Origin: an uncultured Ignavibacteria bacterium | GTDB taxonomy: Bacteria > Zixibacteria > MSB-5A5 > SM23-73-2 | NCBI GenBank assembly: GCA_964447175.1 | Contig: CAYURP010000001.1 | Coordinates: forward strand, 78,208 to 142,207 | Direction: 5' to 3' | Length of the DNA: 64,000 nucleotides | Shown here: piece after piece, positions 1,944-49,541 of the stretch | Position numbering within the stretch: position 1 is the first letter of the stretch | How the letters are laid out: each line of letters begins with the position of its first letter | The notes under the pieces: generated by a model | What the model saw: only the letters and a program-made list of their open reading frames with translations | Database searches by the model: none | Told to the model about the DNA's origin: nothing | Translations under genes and position numbers: made by a program

Positions 1944-2348
1944 ATGGAAACAAAAGACAAAAATAAAACGACCAACAAATTCAACTATCTCCCCTACAAA
2001 AGAAAACTAACCCAGTTAGCACGACAGAACAGGAATAATCCCACTCCAGCAGAAAAGAAACTCTGGTATGAGGTCTTATGTCGAAAGCGATTCGAAGGAT
2101 ACAAGTTCACTCGCCAAAAGCCCCTTGGTGGTTATATAGTTGACTTCTACTGTTCGAAGCTCCGATTGGTGATTGAGATTGATGGTGATTTGCACGCGGA
2201 GAATGCTGAATATGATGAAGTGAGAACAAATATATTGAAACAATATGGATTGAAGGTTCTACGATATACTAATCGGGATGTGATGAATAATATTGAGGGT
2301 GTGTATCGGGATTTGATGCAAATTGTCAACCCCCCTTTCCCCCCTTAA
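1944..2348 (+). CDS. DUF559 family protein (Vsr/MutH-like endonuclease fold), embedded in the hairpin-repeat array.
   Basis: 134 aa with 'YIVDFYCSKLRLVIEIDGDLH...RTNILKQYGLKVLRYTNRDV', typical of DUF559. The last 7 codons ('VNPPFPP*') are encoded by repeat unit C. Confidence 0.7.
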   Translation: METKDKNKTTNKFNYLPYKRKLTQLARQNRNNPTPAEKKLWYEVLCRKRFEGYKFTRQKPLGGYIVDFYCSKLRLVIEIDGDLHAENAEYDEVRTNILKQYGLKVLRYTNRDVMNNIEGVYRDLMQIVNPPFPP

Positions 2349-19533: not shown

Positions 19534-19562
19534 CTTCATTTTCTAATTTTTACTTGACAAGG

Positions 19563-19730: not shown

Positions 19731-20843
19731 TCAGTTTACCCATCTAACGCCATCAACGTAGAAGGTTTTATCACCTTGTTCCACTGTGATCATGAATGGG
19801 CAGAATATCTTTTCCAAGTTAGCTCCCGAGAATGCATCCACAGGAATACTTATCTCCTGCCAAGTGCTGTCTCCGTCCCATCCATGGTCAGCGAGGTAAA
19901 CTCTGAATTTACTACCGTATCTACTATAGTGCTGTATCTCAATCTTCATAATTTCTGCTGTCTTCACCCAGAACTTAAGATAAGCATAAGCTGATAAGTC
20001 TACCGTATGGTCTGAAGGTTGGTTGAGGAATACACCCCAACCTGCATAATTCTTCTTATTTCCCCAGTTTGGACCACTTTTCGTCTTAAAACATGTGTAT
20101 CCTTCAGGAGCATTCTCACCTGTATAGCTTGGGTCGAACAAAGCTTCCGGTCCTCCCCAATCTTCTCCACTCCAAATCCAAATCTCACCGTCATCACGGT
20201 CACCCAAGTCATTATAGATAGTATAATCGCAAGTGAGAGTTATGTTCTGTGAGACAGTATCTTTTGCTCCATCATTATCAGCGACAATGAGAACAACCTC
20301 ATAGCTTCCTGCTACTGCGTATTGATGACTTGGATTCTGGATGCTATAAAGTGAATCATCGCCAAAGTTCCACTCCCAGATCACAATTTCTCCGTCGTCA
20401 TCCGCTGATTCATCTGTGAACTTCACTGCGCAACCATTGGTGGAACAGACAAAAGCAGCTATAGGAGGGCGATTTATAATGTCTACAGTGTCTAAGTAAC
20501 TACCTGTGGCTCCATCGTTATCAGTGACAGTAAGACATACTTCAAAAGTTCCGACACTCACATATCGATGGGTGGGGTTTTGAGCTGTAGATACCGATCC
20601 ATCACCGAAATTCCAGTGCCAATCAGTAATTTCTCCGTCTGGATCTGTGGACTGGTCAACAAATTGGACTTCTCGTAAGTTGGTCGAGTAAGAAAAAGAA
20701 GCAATTGGGGGGTTGATTTCAGGTTCGGTCGATTTTTTGGAACACTGAAAATTCATAACAACTCCAAGGAACCCAATAATCAAGATAACCGATGTCTTGT
20801 AAATCTTTTGTTTCTCCATTTTTATCACTCCTCGTATCATCAT
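19731..20843 (-). CDS. Lipoprotein with two PKD domains and a C-terminal CBM-like beta-sandwich domain.
   Basis: Signal peptide plus Cys. Two repeats of 'W.WNFGDGS....NP.H.Y...G.YEV.L.V.DNDGA'. The C-terminal domain is homologous to the C-terminus of the adjacent GH17 protein. Confidence 0.75.
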   Translation of the reverse strand: MMIRGVIKMEKQKIYKTSVILIIGFLGVVMNFQCSKKSTEPEINPPIASFSYSTNLREVQFVDQSTDPDGEITDWHWNFGDGSVSTAQNPTHRYVSVGTFEVCLTVTDNDGATGSYLDTVDIINRPPIAAFVCSTNGCAVKFTDESADDDGEIVIWEWNFGDDSLYSIQNPSHQYAVAGSYEVVLIVADNDGAKDTVSQNITLTCDYTIYNDLGDRDDGEIWIWSGEDWGGPEALFDPSYTGENAPEGYTCFKTKSGPNWGNKKNYAGWGVFLNQPSDHTVDLSAYAYLKFWVKTAEIMKIEIQHYSRYGSKFRVYLADHGWDGDSTWQEISIPVDAFSGANLEKIFCPFMITVEQGDKTFYVDGVRWVN

Positions 20844-28130: not shown

Positions 28131-28139
28131 GAATTAGTA

Positions 28140-28745
28140 AATAGTTCATAGTTAATAGTGGATAGTTGGAATAGAATCCGTAGGCTGGGCAACCTTACCC
28201 AGCCTGAATTTTACTGGGGCTGATCATCCTATAGGCAGATCCCGCCAGAGGCGGGAGAGCCCCAGCTACGAGAACAAAAATAAGGTAGCACAGGTTGTCA
28301 CGCGGAACGGGCAGGCAACCTGTGATTACAAATTTGGTTTTCCAGAACCTAACTTAAGTTAGGTTCTGGTATCTTATTTCCCCCCCTCCCGTCCCCTGGA
28401 GATCTGAAGATCTCCGCTACATACTAAGAAGCACACCTTAAGGCAAGGTGGGCTACCGGACCCCCTCCCCTGGAAAACTAAAGTTTTCCACTACACAAAA
28501 GAATTGATTGGGACAAGATCAGGAGACCTTGTCCTACCCACTCCTCAGAAAATCTCAGATACATTGGTATTGAGAGGTACGTAGGCTGGGCACCCTTGCC
28601 CAGCCTATATTTTTGCCGGGGCTGTTCATGCCATAGGCAGATCCCGTCAGAAGCGGGGGAGCCCCGGCTACGAGGTTTTAGCTGCGAACTACTTTCTGAA
28701 TCATCTAAACAAATGATAGCCCTGCTCGTATCAAAAAGTAAGTTT
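28140..28745. repeat. Mosaic cluster of structured intergenic repeats. It has two copies of a 95-bp element (28181-28275 and 28580-28672), a 14-bp-stem perfect palindrome (28337-28364), and the H1 and H2 hairpin elements shared with 43.5-48.1 kb.
   Basis: Direct inspection. 'gtaggctgggcaMccttRcccagcct...ataggcagatcccgYcagaRgcggg' occurs twice. 'cccctggaRRMctRaagWtYtccRctaca' occurs twice. The 'caccttaaggcaaggtgggctacc' hairpin is present. Confidence 0.75.
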
Positions 28746-28758
28746 AGCGGGAAAACAG

Positions 28759-34338: not shown

Positions 34339-34421
34339 CACATAGAAAGAATTCAAATTACAGGAAGAGCCAGGCTGAAATTGAATCGAGATGACGATAA
34401 AAAATTATTTGAGGAGAATAA

Positions 34422-34664: not shown

Positions 34665-34673
34665 GAGGTCGAG

Positions 34674-35627
34674 ATGAAATCGTATCGCACATCCATTGCA
34701 ATCCTTTTGTTTTTTGCCCTTCTTGTTGCCAGCCCCTGGAACGAGGCTTTGAGCCAGCGCGGTGGAGGTCATCATGGGAAAGGCTTCTTGTCCAATTTGA
34801 CGGATGAGCAAAGAGAGGCTGTTCAAGAGAAAATGGAGGAGATGAGAGAACAGGGTGCTACACCTGAGGAGGTTCACACCGCAGTAGTTGAGATGCTGAA
34901 AGGTTATGGCATCGAGGTGCCCGAGGATTGGAAGGGACTGCATGGTCGAGGTGGCTTTGGTCCTGGTCCAGGTGGCTTCTGGAAAGATCTCACTGATGAG
35001 CAGAGGCAAGCTGTTCATGAAAAGATAAAGGAGCTGCGAGGTCAGAGTGCTACAGCTGAGGAGATTCACACCGCAGTGGCAGAGATGCTAAAAGGTTATG
35101 GCATTGAGGTGCCTGAGGATTGGAAAGGACCGCATGGTCGAGGTGGTTTTGATCCTGGTCCAGGTGGCTTCTGGAAAGATCTGACTGAAAAGCAGAGACA
35201 AGCTGTTCATGAAAAGATAAAGGAGATGAAAGACCAGGGTGCTACCCGGGAGGAGATTCACGCCGCAGTAACTGAGATAATTGAAAGTTACGGTATCGAG
35301 CTACCAAAGGATTCTGAAGATAGTACTTCAGAAATCGCACCTGCTGCTGAACCTTATATTAAAGCCCAGAATTATCCCAATCCCTTTAATCCTCAGACCG
35401 AGATCGCTTACAATCTGCCTCAGGACTATCAGGTCAAGCTGACCATCCTGAATATACAGGGTCAAAAAGTCAGGGTTTTGGTGGATGAGTATCAGAACGC
35501 AGGGATGAAAAAGGTGACCTGGGATGGCTGTGATGAAAGCGGAGAAAGAGTAGCAAGCGGGGTCTATTTTTACAGAATTGAAGCTGGCTCATACACTGTG
35601 TCGAACCGGATGGTTCTGCTCAAGTAG
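34674..35627 (+). CDS. Secreted T9SS cargo protein. It has three tandem Spy/CpxP-like LTXXQ repeats of about 62 aa plus a Por-secretion C-terminal sorting domain.
   Basis: Signal peptide. Three repeats of 'LTDEQR.AV.EK..E.R.QGAT.EE.H.AV.EMLKGYGIEVPEDWKG.HGRGGF.PGPGGFWKD'. The C-terminus 'NYPNPFNPQTEIAYNLP...VASGVYFYRIEAGSYTVSNRMVLLK' matches the T9SS type-A CTD. Confidence 0.7.
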   Translation: MKSYRTSIAILLFFALLVASPWNEALSQRGGGHHGKGFLSNLTDEQREAVQEKMEEMREQGATPEEVHTAVVEMLKGYGIEVPEDWKGLHGRGGFGPGPGGFWKDLTDEQRQAVHEKIKELRGQSATAEEIHTAVAEMLKGYGIEVPEDWKGPHGRGGFDPGPGGFWKDLTEKQRQAVHEKIKEMKDQGATREEIHAAVTEIIESYGIELPKDSEDSTSEIAPAAEPYIKAQNYPNPFNPQTEIAYNLPQDYQVKLTILNIQGQKVRVLVDEYQNAGMKKVTWDGCDESGERVASGVYFYRIEAGSYTVSNRMVLLK

Positions 35628-35721
35628 ACCAGAAGTCATGGGTAACTGTATTCAATTATTGGGGGCGACCCGAAATTCTGGTCGCCCCTGGTTTCTAACT
35701 TATAATAAATGAGGATAAAAA

Positions 35722-36585: not shown

Positions 36586-36598
36586 CAGGAATAGATCA

Positions 36599-37369: not shown

Positions 37370-37528
37370 GCTGGCTCTGAAACATGTGCTAAAAAGAGAG
37401 ATCCTGAGCTAAGCTGTTCTGACAGCAAATCGTGATAAATGTATTATTTAGGCTTAAAATGAACCTGGCAGGATTTGCGTAAATGTAGATAGATGCTTTG
37501 AGCTTACCCAAAGAAAAAAGGAGTTTGA

Positions 37529-38791
37529 ATGAAGAAAATAATAGCTTTGTTTGTCATCGTACTCGTGGTAGTGATTTGGCTGGTTTTCAATCCGTTTAAA
37601 AAATCCGAGTCCAATGAAAACAGCGCCACCAGGAGGTCGACTGCCACAGCCCAGCGGGGTAATCTGGTGATAGCCGTAAATTCAACCGGAGTTATAGAGC
37701 CTACCCTTACAGTGGAGCTGAAATCAAAGGCTTCTGGCGAAATCATCGAGCTGCCCATCGAGGAAGGTGACATGGTAAAGAAGGGCCAGCTCATAGCCCG
37801 TCTTGACCAAAAAACTGCCAAAAACGAGTTTGACCAGGCTCAGGCTGATCTTGAGGTAGCTCAGGTGGCACTTTCTCAGGCCGAAAAACAACTTCAAAGG
37901 CAAAAACAGATGTACGAGCGGGAATTGATCTCAGAGCTGGATTATGAAAATGCATTGCTGGCTAATGAACAGGCAAACTCCAACCTGGTCCGGACAAAAA
38001 CAGCACTGGAAGACGCTAAGGAAAGGCTTTCTGATACCATTATCAAATCGCCCATAGATGGTGTAGTCCTGCAAAAATTTGTGGAAAAAGGCCAGATCAT
38101 AGCTTCGGGCATATCCGCCGTTACCGGTGGAACCACCATCGCAACGGTTGCGGATATGTCCCGGGCATACGTTAAGACCTCAGTAGATGAGGTAGACATC
38201 GGGCAGATCGCACCGAACCAGAAAGCTACGGTTATAGCTGAGACATATCCCGATCGTGAGTTCAACGGCGAAGTTCTGCGAATTCACCCCCTGGCAAAAG
38301 TGGATCAGAACGTAACTACTTTCGATGTAACCATTGAGGTGGACAATTCGGAGGGATTGCTAATGGCAGGAATGAACGCCAGCGTGGAGATAATAGCAGG
38401 CTTCAAGGAGAATGTCTTATTGGTACCCCGGGAAGCCTTGACTGATGCCAGGTCCATAGCCCGGATGGTCGGCTTCAATCCAATGGGTGCCGGTCAGCAA
38501 AGCGATACGAGAAAACCACAAGGTGGAAGCTCAACAGGTGAGCCTCCTCCTGGGATGATGGCAGATAAATCTTCTAATCCCAAACGGATGGTTATTGTCG
38601 TTGCCAATGGTCAGGAGGAGCCGCGAGACGTGGAGATAGGGCTGTCCAATTTCGAGAAAGCAGAGATATTATCCGGTTTGTCTGAGGGGGATACAGTCCT
38701 CACAACAGTAACCTCCAAGGCACTCCAGGATCGGGAGGCTTTTCTGCAGCGAATCAGAGAGCACAGCCAGATTCCCGGTATGGGGAGGTAA
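37529..38791 (+). CDS. Efflux periplasmic adaptor (MFP/HlyD family), second copy.
   Basis: N-terminal TM, coiled-coil hairpin, lipoyl and beta-barrel domains. It is followed by an FtsX permease. Confidence 0.8.
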   Translation: MKKIIALFVIVLVVVIWLVFNPFKKSESNENSATRRSTATAQRGNLVIAVNSTGVIEPTLTVELKSKASGEIIELPIEEGDMVKKGQLIARLDQKTAKNEFDQAQADLEVAQVALSQAEKQLQRQKQMYERELISELDYENALLANEQANSNLVRTKTALEDAKERLSDTIIKSPIDGVVLQKFVEKGQIIASGISAVTGGTTIATVADMSRAYVKTSVDEVDIGQIAPNQKATVIAETYPDREFNGEVLRIHPLAKVDQNVTTFDVTIEVDNSEGLLMAGMNASVEIIAGFKENVLLVPREALTDARSIARMVGFNPMGAGQQSDTRKPQGGSSTGEPPPGMMADKSSNPKRMVIVVANGQEEPRDVEIGLSNFEKAEILSGLSEGDTVLTTVTSKALQDREAFLQRIREHSQIPGMGR

Positions 38792-38795
38792 AAGA

Positions 38796-40013
38796 ATGAT
38801 TTTAGGCGAGCTTATCGGAGTCAGTATCAGCTCCTTACAGGCTAACAAGGTCAGATCTTTTTTGACCATGCTGGGGATAATAATTGGAGTGGCTGCGGTC
38901 ATCACCATGATCTCCCTGGGCCAGGGAGCAAAAAAGGCAGTGTCCGACCGACTGGAAGCATTGGGAACCAATCTTTTGTATATCAGATCAGGAGCGCCTC
39001 GTATGGGAGGCGTCAGGGGACCTGTGGGAGCCCTGGAGCGGTTGGATGAGAAAGACTTAAAGAGACTCAAAGCTGAATGCACAGCCGTGGATAATATCGT
39101 GCCGGAGATCACCGGGTCCCGGCAGGTGATTTATGGCAACTCAAACTGGAACACCATGGTCATCGGCACCAGTCCGGAATACTTTGAGATGAGAAACTTT
39201 AACATTGCCGAAGGTGAAGAGTTTACCCAGAGCGACGTAAACGCATTCAGAAGGGTAGCGGTAGTTGGCCCCACCTTGGTGGAGAACGTTTTTGGAAAGG
39301 TCGATCCTGTGGGCAAATCCATAAGGATAGGTCGGATTAGATTTGACGTGATTGGTGTGACCGAATCCAAGGGCTTATCCGGAGGCTGGATGGATTATGA
39401 TGACATGGTCCTGATTCCTTATACCACGGCTCAGAAACGAGTCTTTGGCATAGACTATTTGAACCGTCTGGTTGCCCGTTTAAAAGACGAATCCCTGGTT
39501 CAGCCCGCCTATTTGGAGATCGAGAGAATTCTGAGGGAATCCCACCGACTCCGGCCTGACCAGGAGAACGACTTTTTCATCCAGTCCCAGTCCGATTTCA
39601 CCGAAGCCAGAGAACAAGCCACCCAGACCCTGACTTATCTTCTGGCAGGAGTAGCCTTGGTCTCTCTGATAGTCGGGGGCATAGGCATAATGAACATCAT
39701 GCTGGTCTCGGTCACCGAAAGAACCCGGGAGATCGGCGTTCGCATGGCAATAGGAGCCAGGCGCAGAGATATCCTGATCCAGTTCGTAATCGAATCTGTC
39801 AGTCTCTCCTTATTAGGTGGGATTATGGGTATATTTATGGGAATAGGGGGTTCCTGGGCATTAGCAAAATTTTTCGGGTGGAGTACGTTTATTGCGCCCG
39901 GTTCAGTAGCCCTGTCATTTCTTTTTGCCTTTGCCGTAGGCATCTTTTTCGGCATCTACCCCGCCCGCAAAGCCTCCCTTTTACATCCCATTGAGGCTTT
40001 GAGGTACGAGTAA
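38796..40013 (+). CDS. ABC transporter permease, FtsX/MacB-type. It has a periplasmic domain plus 4 TM helices and no fused ATPase.
   Basis: Homologous to the C-terminal half of the 32383..34338 product. It ends 'LLHPIEALRYE*'. Confidence 0.85.
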   Translation: MILGELIGVSISSLQANKVRSFLTMLGIIIGVAAVITMISLGQGAKKAVSDRLEALGTNLLYIRSGAPRMGGVRGPVGALERLDEKDLKRLKAECTAVDNIVPEITGSRQVIYGNSNWNTMVIGTSPEYFEMRNFNIAEGEEFTQSDVNAFRRVAVVGPTLVENVFGKVDPVGKSIRIGRIRFDVIGVTESKGLSGGWMDYDDMVLIPYTTAQKRVFGIDYLNRLVARLKDESLVQPAYLEIERILRESHRLRPDQENDFFIQSQSDFTEAREQATQTLTYLLAGVALVSLIVGGIGIMNIMLVSVTERTREIGVRMAIGARRRDILIQFVIESVSLSLLGGIMGIFMGIGGSWALAKFFGWSTFIAPGSVALSFLFAFAVGIFFGIYPARKASLLHPIEALRYE

Positions 40014-40028
40014 AACCACAAGAATTCT
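39978..40028 (+). repeat. Left copy of an imperfect direct repeat of about 50 bp, spanning the last 11 codons of the FtsX permease gene plus 15 nt beyond the stop. The right copy is at 43846-43896.
   Basis: 'cttttacatcccattgaggctttgaggtacgagtaaaaccacaagaatt' against 'cttttacatcccattgaagctttgaggtatgaataaaagcccacaataatt'. Confidence 0.7.
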
Positions 40029-40139
40029 TGCTTGATAATTACCAGTACAGGGTGGTGAGGAAATTACACGAATATCTGAAGCGGAATCAGACTCTTACTG
40101 CTTTGGGGTCGGTATTTCTTGGCATCCAAAAATTTATAC

Positions 40140-40168
40140 TTGACAATCGGGACGGAAATTAGTATATG
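40140..40168 (+). promoter_or_regulatory. Putative sigma70-type promoter (TTGACA-N17-TATATG) inside the inserted segment, 140 nt upstream of the PHP-ATPase gene.
   Basis: Sequence 'ttgacaatcgggacggaaattagtatatg'. Confidence 0.3.
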
Positions 40169-40306
40169 GTAACTACAGGAGCAGAGAAAAATGGGGAAAC
40201 CCCAGGGAATTTATGTGGTACATTGGCCTAGCGCTATGAAGAAAAACTTTATTGGTATTTCACGAAGGTTTAGTATACAGAAAACTAGACTGAGAGGAAA
40301 GCAGGC

Positions 40307-43063
40307 GTGAGCCCACAAGGTTTGTCTTTCAAGAAGTTCGATTTACATATCCATACTCCTGCCTCGCAGTGTTTTGCTGATAGATTTGAGGATGAGAAAT
40401 CAGCAGCACAAGCGATAGTCAAAGAGGCGACTAAGAAAGAATTAGCAGCAATAGCAATCACTGATCATAATACCGGCAGATTCATAGATTTGGTGAGAAG
40501 GGAAGCCAAAGGGACGAATCTTACTGTTTTCCCGGGAGTAGAAATCACCGTTGGAGATGCCCATAATCATGTTTTAGCAATTCTGGATGTGGATAAGACA
40601 AGCACGGATATCGATGAGCTATTGATGGTGCTGGGTATTCCAAGCAAGGTTCGGGGCAAGAAAGAAGCGTTTTCGGACAAGACTGTAGTCCAAGCAATAG
40701 ACATAATATGCAAAAGACCTTTCCACGGCATCGTTGTCCCGGCACACATTGACACAACAAATGGTATCTTTGAGCAGATGACAGGTCAGCCCCGAATAGA
40801 GGTAATCCAAAAGCCCGAAATCATAGCAGTAGAAGCGGTGGACTACGCAAAAGTGTCCAAATTGTTAAGTGGCCAAGATCCAAACTACAGACGAAAACTT
40901 ACGGTTTATCAGTCTTCCGACAATCCGAGCCTCGGCGATGACGGGAAACTCATTACATCAGGAGCCCATTCGGGGATGCATAGTATTAATGGTATCGGAT
41001 ATAGATACACGTACTTCAATGTGGATGAGAAAATCAATTTAGAGAGTCTGCGACAATGCTTCATTGATCCCGAGGTAAGAATAAGACAAAGCTGGGAATA
41101 CGAGAAAGGTGTCTACCCCCACGTGAAGAAGGTAAATATCAATAGTGGTTTTCTGGACGACGTCAAAGCTGAGTTTCATCCAGGTTTGAATAGCATATTA
41201 GGTGCTAAAGGAGTGGGCAAGTCTCTTTTGATAGAATTCATAAGATTTGCACTTGATCAAGAGCCGTCACAAGAGGAAGCAAAAATTGATCATGTTAACA
41301 AATTGGAAGCGCAACTACGTCAGTATGGTGAGGTTGAAGTTATAGCCTGTGACGAAACCGGGAAAGAATTCCAGATCAAAAGAACCTATGACCCTGCGGA
41401 AAACAACCCCCTTCATTGCATAGATATATCTAAAAATGAAGTTATTGATGTCAATATCTCTAAGTTATTCCCAGTTATTGCACTTAGCCAAAACGAGATT
41501 ATCAAGATAGCTGAAGACAAAGCGGATGAACAGTTACGCTTCATTGACAGATTTTTTGATTTTCATTTGTACAAGGATCAAATTGATTATCTGGAAGACG
41601 AGTTGCAAGAGCTAGATAGAGAATTCTCAACTACAATCAGATCTTTTCATGAAGGAGCGAAGTTGACAAAACAACTACAAACTGCAAAGGTTGAATTGGA
41701 AAGACTCACAGAGCAACTCAAAAATCCTATCTTTACGGAAATAGGGAAGTACGAATCAAAGGATAAAGTTTTTAGCACTCAGGAGAGGTACTTAGCTACT
41801 TTGAAGGATTACATCTTGAAGCTCATAAATATCATCAAACAGGAGAAGACACCTGTCCTAGGTGCGGACTTGTCGAATGACCCTTCGCTCAAGAGGAACA
41901 TGGATATACTCACGACAACAAAATCAAAGTTGTTGGATGACCTTACTTCTCACATAGAAATGGTAGATACATCTACTCAAAGAGTGATTGCTGAACATCA
42001 AAAATCGTTGCCAGCCTTTAATCAGAAGAAAAACGAATTAAAAGAAATAGTGCTGAAGTTAGGGGGGGATGTCCAATCCTTAGAGCAAAAAAGGAAAAAT
42101 AAGATAAAAGAAATAGAGAATATTGAAACGAAGTTGTCGTCTACAGAAGCAAAAGCACAACGAACAAAAGAGATATTTGAGAAAAGGGAGGAGATGCTTC
42201 GGGAACTGAAGGGAGTATATAGTTCATATTTTCGAGAAAGGAAGGGAAAATGCGAATTCTTTGAAAAGGCGTCCGATGGCAACCTCAAGATCGAAATACA
42301 AGAATCATCTAATATAGACGAATTCAAGAATCGTCTGCTAAGTTTGAAACGAGGATCATATTTGAGAGATGTTGAAATAGAACAGATATGTGAAAAAGTC
42401 TCTCCTCAAGATTTTATTCTAGAATTACTCAGGTATGACATATTGCTGGTAGACAAACCATCACAGGCGGGCAGTAGAATTAAGCAATTATCCAGAATGG
42501 CTGAATTACCTCCTGAAAAAATTAAGGGGCTCGTTGATTACCTGCTGGTACTAATTGAGGATGGACAATTAGAGTACGAGGACTTATTACGTTTGCAATA
42601 TAAGGCATACCCTGTAGATCGACCTGTCATTATGTACAACATAGGAGACAATACTAATCCCAAATATGAATCTTTAGACAAGGTGTCGACAGGGCAAAAA
42701 TGCACAGCAATGCTCATTCTGGCGTTAAGCGATAGCAAGATGCCCATAATTATTGATCAACCAGAAGATTCTATAGACATAAAAACAATTTGGCACGATA
42801 TGTGTTTGAAGATTAGAAGTGGAAAGGAACGAAGACAGTTTATATTCACCACTCACAATTCCAGTGTGGCTGTCGCTTCTGATACCGATAAGTTCATGAT
42901 AATGACAGGCACAGCCTCCAGTGGAGAGATCGTTTTGTCTGGCACCGTGGACAATGAAAACATAAGGAAAGAAATCATTGACTATCTGGAGGGTGGGCTC
43001 ACAACATATAGGTTGAAATATCTGAAATACAACATGCCGAAGGCTATGGACGGATCAAAGTAG
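40307..43063 (+). CDS. PHP-domain phosphoesterase fused to an SMC/SbcC/ABC-type ATPase (918 aa). Ppl-like single-gene candidate anti-phage defence protein. GTG start.
   Basis: The N-terminus has 'FDLHIHTPAS...AAIAITDHNT', the PHP His/Asp metal ligands. The middle has Walker A 'GAKGVGKSLL' and a Q-loop 'ALSQNE', followed by coiled-coil-prone sequence of about 350 aa. The C-terminus has the ABC signature 'STGQK', Walker B 'IIIDQPEDSID' and the H-loop 'TTHN'. Confidence 0.75.
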   Translation: MSPQGLSFKKFDLHIHTPASQCFADRFEDEKSAAQAIVKEATKKELAAIAITDHNTGRFIDLVRREAKGTNLTVFPGVEITVGDAHNHVLAILDVDKTSTDIDELLMVLGIPSKVRGKKEAFSDKTVVQAIDIICKRPFHGIVVPAHIDTTNGIFEQMTGQPRIEVIQKPEIIAVEAVDYAKVSKLLSGQDPNYRRKLTVYQSSDNPSLGDDGKLITSGAHSGMHSINGIGYRYTYFNVDEKINLESLRQCFIDPEVRIRQSWEYEKGVYPHVKKVNINSGFLDDVKAEFHPGLNSILGAKGVGKSLLIEFIRFALDQEPSQEEAKIDHVNKLEAQLRQYGEVEVIACDETGKEFQIKRTYDPAENNPLHCIDISKNEVIDVNISKLFPVIALSQNEIIKIAEDKADEQLRFIDRFFDFHLYKDQIDYLEDELQELDREFSTTIRSFHEGAKLTKQLQTAKVELERLTEQLKNPIFTEIGKYESKDKVFSTQERYLATLKDYILKLINIIKQEKTPVLGADLSNDPSLKRNMDILTTTKSKLLDDLTSHIEMVDTSTQRVIAEHQKSLPAFNQKKNELKEIVLKLGGDVQSLEQKRKNKIKEIENIETKLSSTEAKAQRTKEIFEKREEMLRELKGVYSSYFRERKGKCEFFEKASDGNLKIEIQESSNIDEFKNRLLSLKRGSYLRDVEIEQICEKVSPQDFILELLRYDILLVDKPSQAGSRIKQLSRMAELPPEKIKGLVDYLLVLIEDGQLEYEDLLRLQYKAYPVDRPVIMYNIGDNTNPKYESLDKVSTGQKCTAMLILALSDSKMPIIIDQPEDSIDIKTIWHDMCLKIRSGKERRQFIFTTHNSSVAVASDTDKFMIMTGTASSGEIVLSGTVDNENIRKEIIDYLEGGLTTYRLKYLKYNMPKAMDGSK

Positions 43064-43138
43064 TAAAACTGAAATTATTTCGAAACGTATCGGCATTAAG
43101 AAATGCGGATGCCGAGGGACGAATGAGTTTCGGCAATT

Positions 43139-43165
43139 TCCCCCCGCAAAATGCGGGGGGTCTTG
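43139..43165. terminator. Bidirectional terminator-like hairpin between the convergent PHP-ATPase and DUF4242 genes.
   Basis: 'cccccgcaaaatgcggggggtcttgt' has a 7-bp G/C stem. Confidence 0.45.
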
Positions 43166-43225
43166 TGACTATTACCGAAGCATCACAGATAATATCAAGG
43201 CTGCAGCTTATATGTTATCTTTGAT

Positions 43226-43501
43226 TTATCTGAAGTTTTCCGAGTGAATCATGAACTTATCATCTAATTTGTAGATCCCTTCTGTCGGAAAGTTCTGCGC
43301 TGCTTTAGCGATCACTTTACGTATAGACTCAGCATCTTTTGCATCCCACTCACAGTATAATTTGCCTTCCTCGCGTGCATACCAGCTTCTAACCCAGTAA
43401 GCATCAACTCCGTGATTCGCCTTGATGGCCTTAGCAACAGGTGTAGCGGCTTCCAAGGTCAGCTCTTTGCCTGCGGGATGAATAACTAAGAATTTTGCCA
43501 T
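43226..43501 (-). CDS. DUF4242-family small protein.
   Basis: 91 aa, 'MAKFLVIH...GVDAYWVRSWYAREEGKLYCEWDAKDAESIRKV...EGIYKL'. This matches the DUF4242 pattern. Confidence 0.5.
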   Translation of the reverse strand: MAKFLVIHPAGKELTLEAATPVAKAIKANHGVDAYWVRSWYAREEGKLYCEWDAKDAESIRKVIAKAAQNFPTEGIYKLDDKFMIHSENFR

Positions 43502-43559
43502 TTTTTGTCACCTCCTTCGCCATTTCATACCTTATGTTATGCAATTTACTTCAAGTAGT

Positions 43560-44340
43560 CAAGAAAAAAACACCTTCAACTTGGGCCAGGTCCGTGACCA
43601 AGTTGTGTCCAGCGAAATCTTGTAGGCACTAATTTCCTCCGTGCCAGCGCGAATAAATTCGTGCCTACAATTTATCATCAGATTTACAAAAAAAGAGATT
43701 GTTCAGTATGTAGCGGAAGACTTTTCCGCCTCGGGCGGATTCCGCCACAGACGGGGAGCCTCCCATTTTAAGTTCTAATGGAAACCTTATGGTTTCCTCT
43801 TTCCCCATCCCGTCCCCTGGAAGACTAAAGTCTTCCTCTACATAACTTTTACATCCCATTGAAGCTTTGAGGTATGAATAAAAGCCCACAATAATTTTAT
43901 TCCTTGTTGGAATTAGATTTTCAATTTTGTAGTTGCCCAATTTATTGGGCTTTTTTAACCGATGAATCGGCAAACTACAAATTCAGTTGATGAATCGAGA
44001 AACTACAAATCTGTTTCATCTGTTGGAAATCATCATAAGATTGGATTTATCCCCCCCGACCCCTGGAAGACTAAAGTCTTCCGCTACATAATAAAACAAT
44101 CTCCTTTCGTGCTGTTGGGTCCCCAGACCCAACAGATGATTAGACTTTTCCCACCAGGTCAGGGGACCTGGCGGCACTGGTATAACCAGGTGAACCTGAA
44201 GTCGAAGATCCCGCCCCAGGCGGGGGTTCACACTCCAATAGCAAAAGCCCACCTTGAGGCAAGGTGGGCTACCCAGTCCCGATCCCTGGAAAACTGAAGT
44301 TTTCCACTACATAATGAATACATTATAATAGCCCAGCTTA
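43560..44340. repeat. Mosaic array of structured repeat families H1-H6 and a partial 95-bp element. It includes an 11-codon FtsX-gene 3' fragment (43846-43880).
   Basis: Direct inspection. H6 is at 43636-43686 and an inverted H2 half at 43715-43731. Further H2 copies are at 43806-43842, 44051-44089 and 44278-44312. H4 is at 43926-43988, with a partial second copy to 44010. H5 is at 44011-44057 and H3 at 44103-44177. The partial 95-bp element lies near 44200-44230. H1 is at 44244-44273. Confidence 0.8.
44244..44273 (-). terminator. Rho-independent terminator for the minus-strand gene 44343..45620 (the H1 hairpin).
   Basis: The minus strand reads 'ggtagcccaccttgcctcaaggtgggctttt', a 9-bp stem followed by a T-tract. 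Confidence 0.5.
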
Positions 44341-44342
44341 AA

Positions 44343-45620
44343 TTACCTAATGACCCAGATGCGGACCCTGACCCAATCGACGACAGTATCATTGCTTTGC
44401 CGGGTCACTCTGATTATGGAATTGTCCAGATCGTACCAGTAAGCTCCCCTATACGTGGTGCTATTTTGGAAGCCTCCGAAGCCTTCTTGATGGGGCCCCG
44501 TAACGCCCCCGCTGTTGTCATAGAACACAAGGTCAACAACATAATCATTATAGCTGCCTCCAAGATTGTGGGTGAACGTTTTGGTCTCGCCTTGACTGAT
44601 CGACACCCACCCGCTGTTATAGTCGGGCTGGGGGAAACCGAAGTAGTTCTTGACTTCATTGTCGGATACGTCGATATTGCCTTCCACATCCAGCTTTTCA
44701 CTGGGACTTGTAGTTCCGATGCCTACATTGCCTGCGCTTTCAATAAACATCTTTGTTGTAGCATTTGTTTGAAAATGTAAATCTGCCCAGCCACCTCCTC
44801 CGGCATGAGCATTAATTTTAAAACCATCTCCGCCACCATCATGCTTTAACTCCCCATAAACGGTTGAATAAGTAGGGTCTTCTCCGACTCGGATATGGTT
44901 TGCCACGTGAAGATCATCATTCGGGGTGGTGGTTCCGATGCCCACGTTGGCGTTTCTGAGTACAATCTTATTACCGGGATCATCAATTTCCAAGTAAACT
45001 TGATTTCCTATGCCGTCAGGGTCACCAAGCCTAACATTATAACCGTTTGTTACAATAGAAGGCTCAGCAAGATTTGGATATACTCCAAAGTCTCCACCTC
45101 CAACTGTTAGCTTTTCACCGGGGCTTGCCGTCCCGACGCCTACCTTGTCCGTGTTGGCCTCTAATCTAACCACTGACCCATCATCTACCCATCCCCCACC
45201 ACTGCCAACGACGGATCCAGCTACGGCTGCACTGTCTGCCACCAGCGCCCGATAAGCATAGGGCATGCTGGTTAACCTGATTCTGGGAGAAATCTCCGCA
45301 TCTGTGCCCACGGTTATTCCGAAATACCTAACGGTGTCGTCGAAAAGGGAAGCGGGTATGGGATTTGTTCCTCCCAGTATTACGTTAAACAATCCGTCGG
45401 TCACCGTTACCCCGGAATGATACTCATACCACAAAGAATCATTCCCTGATTCAGAACCATAGATTTTGAAGTTCAAATCATACGAGCCGTTCAACGGATC
45501 CCCAGTATCACTGGTCAACATTCCCTGATAGTTGATCATATGAGGAATCTCAGCCCAGCAGGGATTGGCTACCAGACTGAGAAGAGCTATGATGGTTAAT
45601 ATAAAAAGCGCACGCATCAC
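44343..45620 (-). CDS. Secreted protein, paralogue A. It has a tail-fibre-like N-terminal repeat domain and a divergent C-terminal domain.
   Basis: Signal peptide. The N-terminal 165 aa are about 60% identical to the 46016..47539 product ('INYQGMLTD..G.PLNG.Y.L.FKIY....G...LW.E......V..GLFNV.LG...PIP.S.F.DT.RY.GITV..D.E.SPRIRLTS.PYAYRALVADSAAVAG'). Confidence 0.6.
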   Translation of the reverse strand: MMRALFILTIIALLSLVANPCWAEIPHMINYQGMLTSDTGDPLNGSYDLNFKIYGSESGNDSLWYEYHSGVTVTDGLFNVILGGTNPIPASLFDDTVRYFGITVGTDAEISPRIRLTSMPYAYRALVADSAAVAGSVVGSGGGWVDDGSVVRLEANTDKVGVGTASPGEKLTVGGGDFGVYPNLAEPSIVTNGYNVRLGDPDGIGNQVYLEIDDPGNKIVLRNANVGIGTTTPNDDLHVANHIRVGEDPTYSTVYGELKHDGGGDGFKINAHAGGGGWADLHFQTNATTKMFIESAGNVGIGTTSPSEKLDVEGNIDVSDNEVKNYFGFPQPDYNSGWVSISQGETKTFTHNLGGSYNDYVVDLVFYDNSGGVTGPHQEGFGGFQNSTTYRGAYWYDLDNSIIRVTRQSNDTVVDWVRVRIWVIR

Positions 45621-45624
45621 ATAC

Positions 45625-46012
45625 CTCCGATTGGTTTGAGGGTTAACGTTTTTAAATAATTAAATGGAAAATTCTTTCTATGGCAAGAAAAAAGTAGCAG
45701 TGGAGCTCTGCCTCCGCCTGGTAATTGCTTCTGTAGTTACTCAATTTATTGGGATTTGTTAGCTCGATGAATCGACAATTGCAGAATAATCTGTTTCATC
45801 TGTTGGGAAGCAACATAGAGTTGAGTTCACCCCACTTCTTCCCCTGGAAGACTGAAGTCTTCCACTACATTTTAAAAATCCCCTGGAAACCTTTCGTGCT
45901 GTCGGGTCCCCAGACCCGACACATAATTGGGCTCTTCCCGCCAGGTCAGGGGCCTGGCGAGCACAAGAGATAAGATCACATGATCTTCCGACTTTCGTTT
46001 CAAATATGACCT
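45625..46012. repeat. Mosaic repeat array: H4 (about 45731-45790), H5 (45791-45835), H2 (45836-45870) and H3 (45889-45964).
   Basis: Same families as at 43.9-44.2 kb, in the same order. Confidence 0.8.
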
Positions 46013-46015
46013 TGT

Positions 46016-47539
46016 CTACCTATCCTTAATCTCTTTCTCGCTTTGCTGTCCCAGCTGCTTTGCTATCTCCTCTCTTATTTCCGTAAGCTTTGTTTCAAAT
46101 TCAGCACGCACAGCTTCAGTTTCAGCTTTCACCCGCTCAGCGATCGCCACTTCGATTTGAGCCTGGGTAGGATCGAGGTGACCCTCATTTAGTGAAGAAC
46201 TGGCAAAAATAACGCCATACGAAGTTGGGAAGAAAAGTATGGTAAGATTAGCGTCAAATATGCAGCTGAAGGATCCGGCGTCCTTTTGGCCAAGGAAATA
46301 GAAGTTGTTGATCCCAGCCTCTACCTCAAAAAACCCGTGAACCGTGACAATATCACGATAAGTCATATTGCCCCAGGTGCTTTGAATTACCATCCAGTTG
46401 TTTTGGTCAGCTGGAAACACGCCCGCTTCATCGGAAACGCCAAATTGTAGTATTTCATTCGTACCAGAGCTGTGCGACACATATATATTCCCGGTGCCGA
46501 TTACAAATGCATATCCACTAGTGGGGAAAACCATCATACGACCCAGAATGGTTTTGACTGTGCCGTCCAACTCCACGGAACTCGTGGTTCGTTGATTGTT
46601 CCCAATTCCAGCTTCATTCTTGATCTCTGCGTTAGAAATTGAGCTAGTGGGAAGCATTACTGACGAATCATCACTTGAATACATGTCAAAGATTACAGAA
46701 CGGTCACTACCAGTTATGGAGACCATCGGTTCTTGCGTATTATTCCAGTTGCCGTCGACCATAAATCCATATTGCCCTGCTGAGTCACGCATAACCTCAA
46801 AAAATCCGCCGCCACCGGAGCTATAGTCACTATGAATGATATGGGAGATATTCCCTGTTCGATCGTTAAAGCGAAGGTCCATACCACCTCCAGGCAACTC
46901 TGCAGCATACATAATCTCCGAGGGCGACTCGTCCCCATAAAATAGGAACTTACCGTCTTCTGATGTTGAGCCTAAACGAAGTTGACTGCCAATAAGAGAA
47001 TCTGAAGCGTGAATATCACCTGCAACATCAAGCTTAGTCGATGGAGTGGATGTGCCTATTCCGACATAATCAGTCCCAGTCTCCAATCTGACCACTGTTC
47101 CATCATCTACCCATCCTCCAACCCCGCCAGTTCCTAATCCAGCTACGGCAGCGCTATCTGCCACCAGCGCCCGGTAAGCATAGGGTATGCTGGTTAACCT
47201 TATTCTGGGTGAGAGTTCTGGATCAGATTCAACTGTGATCCCCAGATACCTCAGAGTGTCGTTGAACACAGATGAAGGTATGGGAGTTGTGCTTCCCAAT
47301 ATCACATTGAATAACCCGTTTTCAACTGATATCCCGGTCTGGGCTTCAGTCCACAAAGCTGATCCACCAGAGGATTGACTGTAGATTTTGAAGGTTAAGT
47401 TATAGTCCCCATTCAAAGGATTCCCTCCGGTATCTGTGAGCATTCCCTGGTAATTCATCAGGAAGGGAATCCCAGCCCAGCACACGGCAGCAGCCAGCAT
47501 AAATGCCCCAATGACCGCTCCCACAAGAAGCTTTTTCAT
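46016..47539 (-). CDS. Secreted protein, paralogue B. Tail-fibre-like N-terminal repeat domain and a long variable C-terminal region ending in a coiled coil.
   Basis: Signal peptide. Conserved N-terminus as in paralogue A. The C-terminus is 'IEVAIAERVKAETEAVRAEFETKLTEIREEIAKQL'. The 5' leader is conserved with paralogue A ('aaacgttaaccctYaaacc'). Confidence 0.6.
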   Translation of the reverse strand: MKKLLVGAVIGAFMLAAAVCWAGIPFLMNYQGMLTDTGGNPLNGDYNLTFKIYSQSSGGSALWTEAQTGISVENGLFNVILGSTTPIPSSVFNDTLRYLGITVESDPELSPRIRLTSIPYAYRALVADSAAVAGLGTGGVGGWVDDGTVVRLETGTDYVGIGTSTPSTKLDVAGDIHASDSLIGSQLRLGSTSEDGKFLFYGDESPSEIMYAAELPGGGMDLRFNDRTGNISHIIHSDYSSGGGGFFEVMRDSAGQYGFMVDGNWNNTQEPMVSITGSDRSVIFDMYSSDDSSVMLPTSSISNAEIKNEAGIGNNQRTTSSVELDGTVKTILGRMMVFPTSGYAFVIGTGNIYVSHSSGTNEILQFGVSDEAGVFPADQNNWMVIQSTWGNMTYRDIVTVHGFFEVEAGINNFYFLGQKDAGSFSCIFDANLTILFFPTSYGVIFASSSLNEGHLDPTQAQIEVAIAERVKAETEAVRAEFETKLTEIREEIAKQLGQQSEKEIKDR

Positions 47540-47544
47540 TACGG

Positions 47545-48062
47545 GACTCCTTTCGGTTTAAGGATTAACGTTTAAGGTAAATATCTGATATTTGTCCTTT
47601 TTGTCAAGTAGTTTTTATGGTTACAGATGCCTACATGTTAAGAGAGGATACGATTTTATCCCTGCCAGCACGAATAGAATTCGTGCCTACAATTGCTCAT
47701 CAGATTTTTCGTGGTGTTGGGTCCCCAGACCCGACAGATAATTGGGCTTTCCCGTCAGGTCAGGGGACCTGGCGGCACCAATACGGTCTCCTCTACATAA
47801 TAAAAAGCCCACCTTGAGGCAAGGTGGGCTACCGGATCCCGACCCCTGGAAAACTAAAGTTTTCCTCTACATATTAAAACCCTGAGTGCTTTTGTAGTTG
47901 CCCAATTCATTGGGCTTCTTTTAGCCGATTAATCGGCAAACTACAAATTTGCTTGACAAATCAAGTGACTACAAGTCTGTTTCATCTGTTGGGAATCTCT
48001 ATAGGATGGGATTTATCCCCTCTCTTCCCTTGGAAAACTGAAGTTTTCCGCTACATTTTAAA
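47545..48062. repeat. Mosaic repeat array: H6 (47659-47709), H3 (47706-47779), H1 (47802-47833), H2 (47833-47873), H4 (47889-47965), H5 (47975-48020) and H2 (48017-48056).
   Basis: Direct inspection. Confidence 0.8.
47802..47833 (-). terminator. Rho-independent terminator (H1 hairpin), about 230 nt downstream of the minus-strand gene 48066..49541.
   Basis: The minus strand reads 'ggtagcccaccttgcctcaaggtgggcttttta'. Confidence 0.45.
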
Positions 48063-48065
48063 ATT

Positions 48066-49541
48066 TCAGCGGGCAAGGAGCTTTTCGATTTTTTGGGCCA
48101 CCATGCTTGCAGCTCCGTCGTAATTTGCCATTACCGCAGCGGTATAACCATTATCCAGATACATATCCAGGTTGGCATTGATGCCCGGCGCTCCTCCACC
48201 GTGGCCGATTATCCGCTGACCGTTTACCATTCGATCCTGGAAAAGATAGGCATACATTGTACCGGGTCCCCTCTGGGTCTTGCCTGTGGTCAGGGTATCA
48301 AAGGACTCCCTGTTAATAAGCTTATTTGAACGCAAAGCTATGTCGAATTTCAAAAGGTCTTCCACTGTTGAAAACCCCCCTCCAGCCGGTCCGCCCTTGA
48401 CTGTATGCATGAATAGATTATTACGCCATTTGCTGTCGGGACCGCGATTTCCCTCATAATCCATTTTAGTATAACCTATGGCCAGATTGGGCACCGGAGT
48501 ATCCATTTCATAGCAGTCGGTATTGATCATTCCAGCAGGTTTAGAGATGTTCTCCCTGATGTAATCGTAGTAGTCCTGGCCAGTAACTTTCTCAATAATC
48601 ATTCCCAGAACAATGGGTCCGGAATTGCTGTAATGAAAGTCCGTGCCTGGCTCGAAAAGCAAGGTGTCGTCGAAAGCCAGCTCCCCCAGCTGACTTACGG
48701 TCTTGATCTCCCACCAGGGTGCATCAAATATCTCATCCCAGTAATCCTGCATTCCGGAGGTATGGCTCAAAAGATGATGAATGGTTACCTTTTCTGCAAT
48801 CTCCTTGCGAGGCAGATCGAGCAAGTATTTGCCCACAGGATCATTTAAAGATATTTTCCCCTGCTCCACCAGCTGCATAATTGCCACTCCGGTGAACATC
48901 TTGTTCATTGATCCCAGGTTGAATTTGGTGTCCAGCTGAATGGGGACATTGTATCGCTTGCTTGCCAGACCGTATGCCCGGGTGTAAAACGGTTTGCCGT
49001 TTTTTGCGATCAAAACAGTCCCTGAAAACCGATCATTGGAGACCAAGTGATCCAGATAACGGTCGAGAAAGTCAACCATCTCCTGATGCGTCAACTCGCC
49101 TTCCGGTACTTCAAATCCGGGTTCTTCCCCGGGCCGGACAGAGAGCCGGTCCAGCTTGTGGGGAGGGAGCGTATCGACCATTATTGTTAGATCAACCCAC
49201 TCCATCTCACCGTCGGGATTTTTAGCTTGTAAAAGCACCGAGAGGGAGTAATTCTCTGAATCCCCAATCCGATAAAGTGTCGCACCGCCCAGATCAGAAT
49301 AGACCTGCTTGAAAAACTCTAAACGCTTCTCAAAGGCGCCCTCCCGCTCTTTCCAGTGATCTTTGATGAAGCTTTTCCACTGATCCTCATCACCAGAGTT
49401 GAATGAATTTAAAAGAATTGTTAATAACCTGCCCGCAGGAGTATCTGGTATCTCAGGCTGAGAAGCCTGAACGCTTGAGGAAAATAAAAGGACAATTACT
49501 AAGATACAGAAGATAAGTTTACAATTACCTGGTCTATACAT
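48066..49541 (-). CDS. Secreted serine hydrolase of the beta-lactamase/PBP4*-like family, with an extra N-terminal domain.
   Basis: Signal peptide. 'LGSMNKMFTGVAIMQL' (SxxK) and 'FHYSNSG' (YxN). Confidence 0.8.
   Translation of the reverse strand: MYRPGNCKLIFCILVIVLLFSSSVQASQPEIPDTPAGRLLTILLNSFNSGDEDQWKSFIKDHWKEREGAFEKRLEFFKQVYSDLGGATLYRIGDSENYSLSVLLQAKNPDGEMEWVDLTIMVDTLPPHKLDRLSVRPGEEPGFEVPEGELTHQEMVDFLDRYLDHLVSNDRFSGTVLIAKNGKPFYTRAYGLASKRYNVPIQLDTKFNLGSMNKMFTGVAIMQLVEQGKISLNDPVGKYLLDLPRKEIAEKVTIHHLLSHTSGMQDYWDEIFDAPWWEIKTVSQLGELAFDDTLLFEPGTDFHYSNSGPIVLGMIIEKVTGQDYYDYIRENISKPAGMINTDCYEMDTPVPNLAIGYTKMDYEGNRGPDSKWRNNLFMHTVKGGPAGGGFSTVEDLLKFDIALRSNKLINRESFDTLTTGKTQRGPGTMYAYLFQDRMVNGQRIIGHGGGAPGINANLDMYLDNGYTAAVMANYDGAASMVAQKIEKLLAR

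Follow-up and report, generated by a model that had tools for sequence, protein, structure and literature searches.

Tandem MAT-like fibre genes with variable tips and adjoining GTAG-tagged repeat mosaics in an uncultured bacterium of the Zixibacteria lineage

We analysed a 64,000-nucleotide (nt) stretch of the genome of an uncultured Ignavibacteria bacterium that GTDB places in the Zixibacteria (contig CAYURP010000001.1; this whole stretch is called the window below), and in particular its region 43560-48062, where two tandem genes, fib1 and fib2, for secreted fibre proteins like the mosaic adhesive trimer (MAT) proteins of Bdellovibrio adjoin spacers filled with hairpin-forming repeats, most of them repetitive extragenic palindromes (REPs). 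The fibre family and the REP system both belong to known kinds, and we consider it probable that the fibre genes and the REP spacers are two separate, ordinary things that happen to adjoin each other. The genes of the locus, and the parts that fib1 and fib2 share, are as follows.

44343..45617, minus strand: fib1, coding for a secreted MAT-like fibre protein of 424 aa, identical to database protein P0028
46016..47539, minus strand: fib2, coding for a secreted MAT-like fibre protein of 507 aa, identical to database protein P0001
45093..45551, minus strand: shared-head coding region of fib1, residues 23-175 (mature N-domain and first stalk repeat), 61% amino acid identity to fib2
47015..47473, minus strand: shared-head coding region of fib2, residues 23-175, from the paralogue BLASTP and the patchwork identity
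43226..43501: small SCO4226-like gene, downstream of the fibre genes in the direction of transcription
48066..49541: beta-lactamase-family gene, upstream of the fibre genes in the direction of transcription

The open reading frame (ORF) call for fib1 covered 44343..45620; since database protein P0028 begins one residue after the 425-aa translation from the GTG start, the ATG at 45617 is probably the true start, which gives 424 aa. BLASTP aligns fib1 and fib2 at 61% identity across residues 1-174 (E 1e-63), and beyond residue 174 they share just a weak match of the motif 'VGIGTxxPxxKLDV'. In the DNA, the similarity runs from about 35-100 nt upstream of the start codons, taking in the ribosome-binding site (RBS) and leader, to near codon 175, with its peak at the junction of the head and the variable part. 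Divergence is not uniform along the two proteins, a conserved head being followed by a break at about residue 174. The original prediction, made from the letters of this stretch, had proposed paralogues with a common signal peptide, leader and N-terminal domain and with unrelated C-terminal halves; the alignment and the RBS/leader repeat D14 bear out the former, and the lack of anything but the short motif match after the break bears out the latter. The three spacers of the locus (43502-44342, 45621-46015 and 47540-48065) consist almost wholly of repeats. Promoter and leader elements were located upstream of both genes.

45618..45700, minus strand: fib1 promoter/5'-leader module, CTTGCCAT..AGAATTT..ATTTAATTA...GTTAACCCTCAAACCAATCGGAGG, kept upstream of five of the six fibre genes in three genomes
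47540..47607, minus strand: fib2 leader with RBS and sigma-70-like promoter (TTGACA, 16 nt, GATATT); promoter scan 10/12, leader repeat D14

The three genomes form a syntenic set, i.e., the window and the related metagenomic genomes L025 and L028. The promoter-like site of fib2 (TTGACA-16-GATATT) was placed at 47607-47580 by the promoter scan, and in L025 the promoter/leader element is near-identical between its two fibre paralogues. The fibre genes seem to be transcribed separately, each as a unit of its own.

The NCBIfam model NF053851 (Bdello_MAT_N), which covers the N-terminus of the 'mosaic adhesive trimer family chimeric fiber protein', matches both fib1 and fib2 (E 8e-9, 35 bits, with a curated cut-off of 60 bits), and it also matches 35 of 36 homologues (best E 4.5e-14), those seen scoring below or near the 60-bit cut-off. 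The match is significant yet below the cut-off, which indicates homology and not membership of the curated subfamily; to judge from the sequences, we take fib1 and fib2 for short fibre adhesins of MAT-like type that share ancestry with the Bdellovibrio family and stand outside its curated subfamily. A Pfam profile search gave no match for either protein. A 113-aa head query retrieved 36,517 cluster representatives at E <= 1e-3 and 13,896 at E <= 1e-10, in which the head nearly always occupies residues ~22-135 of proteins of 105-3220 aa. These homologues carry many different C-termini, including PF13884 (Peptidase_S74) and PF05658 (YadA head), and the closest of them come from Zixibacteria and other uncultivated lineages. 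The head, with its 'INYQG...' pattern, had been taken for a bacterial tail-fibre-domain repeat; it is instead the N-terminal domain of the MAT family, and phage tail fibres match the stalk only. As separate observations, the MAT-type N-domain coding sequence at 45216-45554 is without a Pfam model despite the 36,517 matching representatives, and a few proteins (P0313, P0315 and P0335) contain 3-5 tandem head copies.

Residues 1-22 of both proteins read as a signal peptide with a hydrophobic N-terminus that ends in C-W-A before E/G-I-P, presumably a type-I signal peptide cleaved after C-W-A. We built AlphaFold2 (AF2) monomer models from homologue alignments (A1, full-length homologues of fib2; A2, the fib1 tip family), and those of the two proteins have an N-terminal helix at residues 2-16 and 2-21. 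A lipoprotein signal was considered and rejected on the sequence alone, the residues preceding the Cys not fitting a lipobox. The domains of the two proteins are arranged as follows.

fib1: signal peptide, 1-22; N-domain, 23-~120; linker and stalk with 'VGIGTxxPxxKL' repeats, ~140-325; beta-sandwich tip, ~330-424
fib2, after the shared head: beta domain, ~190-300; TNF/lectin-like jelly roll, ~320-440; long helix, 459-506

In the AF2 models a confident beta-rich N-domain occupies residues ~25-118 of both proteins. For fib1, the predicted local distance difference test (pLDDT) value is above 85 in the N-domain and in the tip, a confident beta-sandwich of ~95 aa, and below 50 in the stalk, as is expected where a trimeric fibre is folded as a monomer. 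The fib2 tip, too, is modelled with confidence. The fib1 stalk matches the Bdellovibrio MAT fibre 8OND (Bd2133) at E 4e-9, and also 8OL4, 8OJN, 8ON4 and 8OML, in a phmmer search of PDB sequences; a stalk of 'VGIGTxxPxxKL' repeats probably forms a trimeric beta-prism. In Foldseek the fib2 jelly roll comes closest, among PDB entries, to the trimeric N-domain of the lectin BC2L-C and to proteins of the TNF family (prob 1.0, TMt 0.60-0.66), and a TNF/lectin-type fold serves as the tip of the MAT proteins Bd2439 and Bd2734 (PMC10769870). By analogy with these proteins, the fibres would be trimeric, anchored at the surface and engaged in ligand binding. The original prediction had one C-terminal half beta-rich and the other ending in a coiled coil. 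Both proteins are in fact beta-rich, and what stands is that fib2 also ends in a predicted helix (459-506). A possible S74 protease motif in fib2, 'SNAEIK', was discarded: its spacing is right, but the Lys is not conserved among the homologues of alignment A1.

Comparison of the locus across the three genomes indicates how this family changes. L025 has both genes at the same locus, with fib2 78% and fib1 82% identical to the window at the amino acid level. L028 has the same locus between the beta-lactamase-family gene (78% protein identity) and the SCO4226-like gene, with a third tip, unrelated to either tip of the window, at the first fibre position (that of fib2), and with a second gene, fibB, that has a fib1-type tip on a stalk shorter by one repeat. 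The nucleotide identity of the six fibre genes, compared segment by segment, forms a patchwork. The signal peptide of L028 fibB is 80% identical to that of window fib2 vs 54% to that of window fib1, and its residues 23-60 are 95% identical to window fib2 vs 62% to window fib1; the same segment of L025 fib1 is 91% identical to window fib2 vs 59% to window fib1. Over residues 61-100, L025 fib1 and L028 fibB are 97.5% identical to each other, and each is ~58% identical to window fib1. As far as sequences can tell, this is the pattern produced by repeated recombination or gene conversion among paralogues. The cassette-like duplication and diversification of an adhesin family that had been proposed for this locus is therefore supported, by a replaced tip and by segmental exchange in head and leader at one locus in three genomes.

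The Bdellovibrio bacteriovorus MAT fibres (Caulton et al. 2024, PMC10769870; NF053851) are the closest known system. Family features include a signal peptide, a meandering trimeric fibre, a variable tip and evolutionary 'tip swapping', with tips that are S74 domains, novel beta-sandwiches, or TNF-like or C-type lectin folds (PMC10769870). The proteins described here have in common with them a signal peptide followed by a conserved beta-rich N-domain, a stalk with GIGT-type motifs, an exchangeable tip that may be TNF-like, and multiple paralogues with swapped tips; the mosaic pattern also fits the 'mosaic' in the name of the MAT family. They differ in length (424-507 aa here vs ~1,000 aa), in an N-domain that scores below the curated cut-off, in a host that is probably Zixibacteria-like and not a known predator, in the helix that fib2 adds after the tip, and in the lack of an S74 domain.

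The spacers between these genes are built from several kinds of module. The most widespread, H2, is a GTAG-tagged hairpin with the minus-strand form aTGTAG-N-GGARNNC-TTYA-GNNYTCC-AGGGG. The copies in the fibre region, all found by pattern and hairpin scans, are these.

43815..43842, minus strand: H2, aTGTAG-N-GGAAGAC-TTTA-GTCTTCC-AGGGG
44061..44088, minus strand: H2
44284..44311, minus strand: H2, 32 nt downstream of the fib1 stop codon
45842..45869, minus strand: H2
47844..47871, minus strand: H2
48028..48055, minus strand: H2, directly downstream of the stop codon (48066) of the beta-lactamase-family gene

The window holds eight H2 copies vs 0.00 expected in 100 shuffles, and 8/8 are intergenic. 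They are sense to the flanking genes in the fibre spacers and antisense at 28 kb. All eight (28394-48055) are oriented alike, with GTAG on the minus strand; this uniformity could reflect a strand bias of single-stranded DNA handling by Y1 transposases, or simply local duplication. The H2 stem covaries: among 74 copies pre-selected for at least 6/7 stem pairs, 5/7 pairs show double-sided changes, 98.8% of cells are paired, and the changes amount to 108 cells vs 33.5 in shuffles, none of 500 shuffles reaching as high. Some of the pairs are G-U. Among pattern hits taken without stem selection, nearly all copies are complementary at the stem positions that the pattern leaves free. A degenerate-pattern scan of one genome per GTDB species, a set that does not include the genome of the window itself, placed H2 at 23 loci in Zixibacteria, Dehalococcoidia, Chloroflexia, Ignavibacteria and Terriglobia, i.e., in at least four phyla, and many of the copies in other genomes form inverted doublets. 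This module is thus neither unique to the window nor lineage-specific. Of the alternative first offered, lineage-specific elements resembling REPs or miniature inverted-repeat transposable elements, the likeness to REPs is retained (GTAG tag, hairpin, and H2 flanking of genes for REP-associated tyrosine transposases, RAYTs) and the restriction to one lineage is not.

The remaining modules, and a second mosaic elsewhere in the window, are listed below.

44243..44272, minus strand: H1, GTAG-CCCACCTTG-CCTC-AAGGTGGG-CTTTT, a GTAG REP downstream of fib1 whose hairpin and T run also resemble an intrinsic terminator (terminator scan, 11-bp stem)
47803..47832, minus strand: second H1 copy, terminator-like, downstream of the beta-lactamase-family gene (terminator scan and sequence)
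44105..44177, minus strand: H3, an inverted doublet of CCAGGTC-CCCT-GACCTGG and CTGTTGGGTC-TGGG-GACCCAACAG with GTGC/GCAC outer ends, similar to REP doublets forming hairpins (REPINs) (RNA fold z -3.3)
45892..45964, minus strand: H3 copy (repeat search and fold)
47707..47778, minus strand: H3 copy whose halves can also pair into one long hairpin (fold z -4.4)
43925..44012, no strand assigned: R4, three GTAG-tagged hairpins in alternating orientation, resembling bacterial interspersed mosaic elements (BIMEs) (inverted repeats I8 and I17; fold z -3.4)
47887..47975, no strand assigned: R4 copy (repeat search)
45729..45778, no strand assigned: partial R4 copy (repeat search)
43620..43685, no strand assigned: R5, a GTAG-GCAC... 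palindromic module (repeats D13, I1 and I18)
47653..47707, minus strand: R5 copy, GTAG-GCACGAAT-TCT-ATTCGTGC (87% identity, E 1e-11)
44008..44054, minus strand: R6, a spacer module invariably next to H2, GGGGATAAATCC..CCAACAGATGAAACAGA (copies at 45788-45835 and 47976-48020)
28131..28758, no strand assigned: independent REP mosaic of ~600 bp between aldehyde dehydrogenase and M19 dipeptidase genes (BLASTN and pattern search)

GTAG stands next to the hairpin in H2, H1, R4, R5 and the 28-kb units. It precedes perfect hairpins in the window 11 times vs a mean of 2.5, which puts it among the top three tetranucleotides. H1 has two perfect copies and a variant at 28.4 kb, and its exact 25-mer was found in two short contigs only of the metagenome scan; the hairpin may act as a terminator. 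The three H3 copies are 73-90% identical, and H3 was not found beyond this lineage, the pattern search matching just the window's own duplicate locus. In R4, the plus strand carries GTAG-TT-GCCCAAT..ATTGGGC and the minus strand GTAG-TTT-GCCGAT..ATCGG and GTAG-TTTCTCGATTC. The H2-R6 pair is present in L028 too, and BLASTN joins 43925-44096 and 47890-48063 as a 175-nt composite repeat (E 8e-43). RNA folds of the modules are strong (z -2.5 to -4.5), and Rfam has nothing in the region at the gathering threshold or at E up to 1. The repeats give rise to spurious ORFs with recurrent peptides such as PWKTxVFxYI in the ORF list, as the original prediction had said. It had also described one ordered series of modules around each gene, and here the picture changes: the block H2-R6-R4 recurs in all three spacers, H3 precedes the block in two of them and follows it in the other, and the modules vary in copy number. 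Nor is the architecture that of the E. coli BIME, with its regularly spaced REPs in alternating orientation and its defined linker motifs. The clusters are BIME-like mosaics with one H2 orientation, irregular spacing and spacer-dependent order; only R4, H3 and the 28-kb doublets alternate.

Two details of the mosaic next to fib1 deserve mention. A hairpin GTGAACC...GGTTCAC at 44181-44236 holds a nested CCCGCC..GGCGGG hairpin that is absent from the L025 copy (3590-3620), consistent with one palindromic unit having inserted in the loop of another. Within the mosaic, 43846-43896 is 88% identical to 39978-40026, the last ~50 nt of a MacB/FtsX permease gene, and this fragment is probably the footprint of a rearrangement that parted fib1 from the FtsX gene; in L025 the SCO4226-like gene alone separates the two.

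Recurrence of the repeats at 28.1-28.7 kb, which had been reported, was reproduced by BLASTN and by the H2 pattern copies there. In that mosaic an H2-H1-H2 cluster is bracketed by two head-to-head GTAG doublets of 95 nt (28179-28272 and 28580-28674) that are 85% identical. REPs also stand next to unrelated genes, among them that of the beta-lactamase family, that for aldehyde dehydrogenase at 28 kb and those for RAYTs. REP number and order at the same locus differ among the window, L025 and L028, with three tandem H2 units after fib1 in L025. The differing content of orthologous spacers points to turnover, and together with the clusters beside unrelated genes it argues that the repeats are not tied to the fibre genes. 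The idea that they are recombinogenic or regulatory RNA elements for the fibre genes is accordingly not upheld, given the same clusters beside unrelated genes, the opposite orientation at 28 kb and the lack of an Rfam match. Taken as a whole, the original prediction described the locus accurately, and half of each of its two alternative interpretations proved right.

A link to transposases comes from other genomes. ORFs of the Y1_Tnp family (~156 aa, with HLHLL and YILENP motifs) are flanked by H2 on both sides in L008 (Ignavibacteria) and in L012 and L024 (Zixibacteria); they match PF01797 above threshold (E ~1e-12), Y1 being the IS200-like/HUH type, and some of their homologues are named 'REP-associated tyrosine transposase' by NCBI. 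GTAG-tagged REPs and REPtrons have been described (PMC3733652), and in the sense of that article the H2-flanked Y1 genes of L008, L012 and L024 are REPtrons. The proteins of these three ORFs (L008 518-1018, L012 118-642 and L024 898-1401), all from metagenome-assembled genomes, are 74-80% identical and have the same H2-type REP flanks; this suggests that a REPtron passed horizontally between phyla, or else mis-binning. A tblastn search of the 64-kb window for a RAYT gave nothing better than E 0.18, and so RAYT-driven spread in this genome is something we infer.

The repeats share much with GTAG REPs, BIMEs and REPtrons as set out in Nunvar 2010 (PMC2817692), in Di Nocera 2013 (PMC3733652) and in Ton-Hoang/Corneloup (PMC8266576): they are extragenic palindromes of 25-30 nt with an unpaired GTAG at one foot and complementary stem variants, they stand alone, as inverted doublets or in clusters, for the most part downstream of genes, and they flank Y1 HUH genes in related genomes. 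Differences are that the hosts (Zixibacteria, Ignavibacteria, Chloroflexota and Terriglobia) are not among the phyla of the PMC3733652 survey, as far as we read it, that one type with conserved flanks (GTAG-N-GGA...TCC-AGGGG) is shared across phyla, that at least six module types lie within 4.5 kb, and that H3 and R6 are untagged. H3, the 95-nt units at 28 kb and many H2 pairs elsewhere also resemble the REPINs of Pseudomonas in being inverted doublets able to fold as a longer hairpin, but their halves often have different stems here, so the ends alone pair.

We propose the following explanation. fib1 and fib2 are tandem paralogues in a very large family of secreted fibre adhesins built like the Bdellovibrio MAT proteins. 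After Sec export, the N-domain would presumably hold the fibre on the cell envelope, followed by the stalk and then by an exchangeable C-terminal binding tip, and by analogy with the MAT proteins the trimeric tips would bind different ligands. The family would diversify by duplication, after which homologous recombination or gene conversion in head and leader would swap tips and shuffle head segments. The spacer REPs, mostly of a GTAG-tagged superfamily and present singly, as inverted doublets and in BIME-like clusters, would most likely owe their spread to a RAYT that acts in trans from another place in the genome. They accumulate downstream of genes, where some (H1) may double as terminator or 3'-end hairpins, and would be selfish or domesticated palindromes that tolerate, and perhaps help, 3'-end formation.

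Several points weigh against this explanation. Three of the four GTAG-REP-rich spacers of the window touch fibre genes, and the fibre homologue of L031 is REP-flanked as well, so a non-random link is possible. With no RAYT gene in the 64-kb window, mobilisation in this genome is presumed. The NF053851 score is 35 bits where the curated cut-off is 60, and MAT proteins of Bdellovibrio are twice as large. H3 and R6 do not carry the GTAG tag, and H3 was found in this lineage only, which means that some modules fall outside the classical GTAG REPs. The covariation result comes from H2 copies chosen beforehand for at least 6/7 stem pairs. Finally, the pLDDT of the stalk in the monomer model is below 50, and the trimeric state and surface display are predictions.

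A causal link from REPs to tip exchange would tie the two parts of the locus together, and we think it unlikely. In its fullest form, the REP clusters would be a cassette-exchange system, with the head coding sequence as the 5' homology arm, the downstream REP block as the 3' arm and a double crossover swapping the tips. In the window, L025, L028 and L010, the stop codon of every fibre gene does lie no more than ~100 nt from H2, which H1 may accompany. Both replaced tips and patchwork heads are seen, and the best-conserved paralogue DNA lies at the head/variable junction. But the same REPs follow genes unrelated to fibres (beta-lactamase family, aldehyde dehydrogenase at 28 kb, RAYT), no perfect-stem GTAG hairpin was found in the L030 spacers beside a fibre gene, and no exchange junction was mapped to a REP; moreover, REPs make poor homology arms because they are just 25-30 nt long and their stems diverge. 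Such a system is therefore improbable. Quite unlikely, too, is a version in which REP blocks and the promoter-leader-head module delimit portable tip cassettes, with RAYT single-strand breaks or REP-REP recombination promoting tip exchange within and between genomes; if true, it would mean REP-assisted diversification of surface fibres in uncultivated bacteria of the Fibrobacteres-Chlorobi-Bacteroidetes (FCB) group, with the near-identical RAYT/H2 REPtrons of several phyla as the vehicle. It is very unlikely that the modules are structured regulatory RNAs (small RNAs, attenuators or mRNA stabilisers) dedicated to fibre-gene control. Their strong folds, the H2 stem covariation and the likeness of H1 to an intrinsic terminator would agree with this, as would the ability of known REPs to stabilise mRNA 3' ends (PMC3733652). 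However, Rfam yields nothing at E up to 1, H2 is antisense at 28 kb and sense in the fibre spacers, it flanks transposase genes, and copy number and order are not kept in close relatives.

Two other explanations concern the genes themselves. That fib1 and fib2 are remnants of a prophage tail-fibre module is highly improbable: PHROG tail-fibre families and phage tail-fibre genes do match the stalk repeats, but these PHROG and phage-genome matches are confined to residues ~154-369, phage matches to the head are absent, as are other phage genes, and the flanks are core chromosomal genes, syntenic in three genomes. The likeness to phage tail fibres and tailspikes with Peptidase_S74 lies in the stalk repeat motif and in family members that end in PF13884, whereas fib1 and fib2 themselves lack S74 and have a Sec signal peptide, a cellular N-domain and a chromosomal context. 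The chance is slighter still that we are dealing with integron-type cassettes, or that a diversity-generating retroelement targets the fibre genes, as the single orientation of these genes, the repeats between genes and the variable tips on receptor-binding-like proteins might suggest. Each gene has its own promoter-like site and leader, the spacers contain many short GTAG hairpins and not one attC-like site, and in other genomes the repeats adjoin an HUH Y1 transposase gene and not an integrase gene. Among 47 Pfam-scanned ORFs, including every window ORF of at least 200 aa, there was no reverse transcriptase, integrase or transposase, so a local diversifying enzyme is not supported for the ORFs of that size. 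No template/variable repeat pair was seen either; coding repeats are the heads and the VGIGT motifs only, and none in the tips resembles such a pair.

Other features of the window lie outside these subjects. A 918-aa PHP and SMC/AAA protein (40307-43063, plus strand) is matched along its entire length by the PADLOC defence protein 'Ppl' (E 2e-46); the gene is absent at the same position in syntenic L025 and L028 and has the appearance of a defence gene inserted next to the fibre locus in a strain-specific way. A DUF559 gene (1944..2348; PF04480, E 8e-35) has ~130-nt repeats on both sides (1756-2496), built from CCCCCCTTAACAGGGGGG and CCCCCTGACAAGGGGG hairpins of a family distinct from the GTAG REPs. 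The 3' end of a PKD-domain gene (19731..20843) has an 88% direct duplicate (19559-19638 and 19762-19841) adjoining tRNA-Ser (19445-19534), which may be an old integration scar. Three tandem repeats of 192 nt (34782-35357) lie inside the gene 34674..35627, whose product has a type IX secretion C-terminal sorting domain; the product of the L025 orthologue is longer (427 aa), which suggests that the number of repeats varies.

What is new here is the host group, the short fibre format, the scale of an N-domain family for which Pfam offers no model, and the sharing of a REP type and RAYT among phyla. These results do not change current concepts; they allow better annotation and call for caution against calling spurious ORFs in REP mosaics. 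They extend the GTAG-REP/RAYT system to phyla for which we found no description, and the shared REP type, together with RAYTs that are 74-80% identical across phyla, bears on the question of strict vertical inheritance of RAYTs. The MAT-type head, studied only in the predator Bdellovibrio, here heads tens of thousands of short, tip-swapping fibre proteins in uncultivated bacteria, and the comparison of one locus in three genomes illustrates clearly how, in nature, tips are replaced and heads undergo gene conversion.

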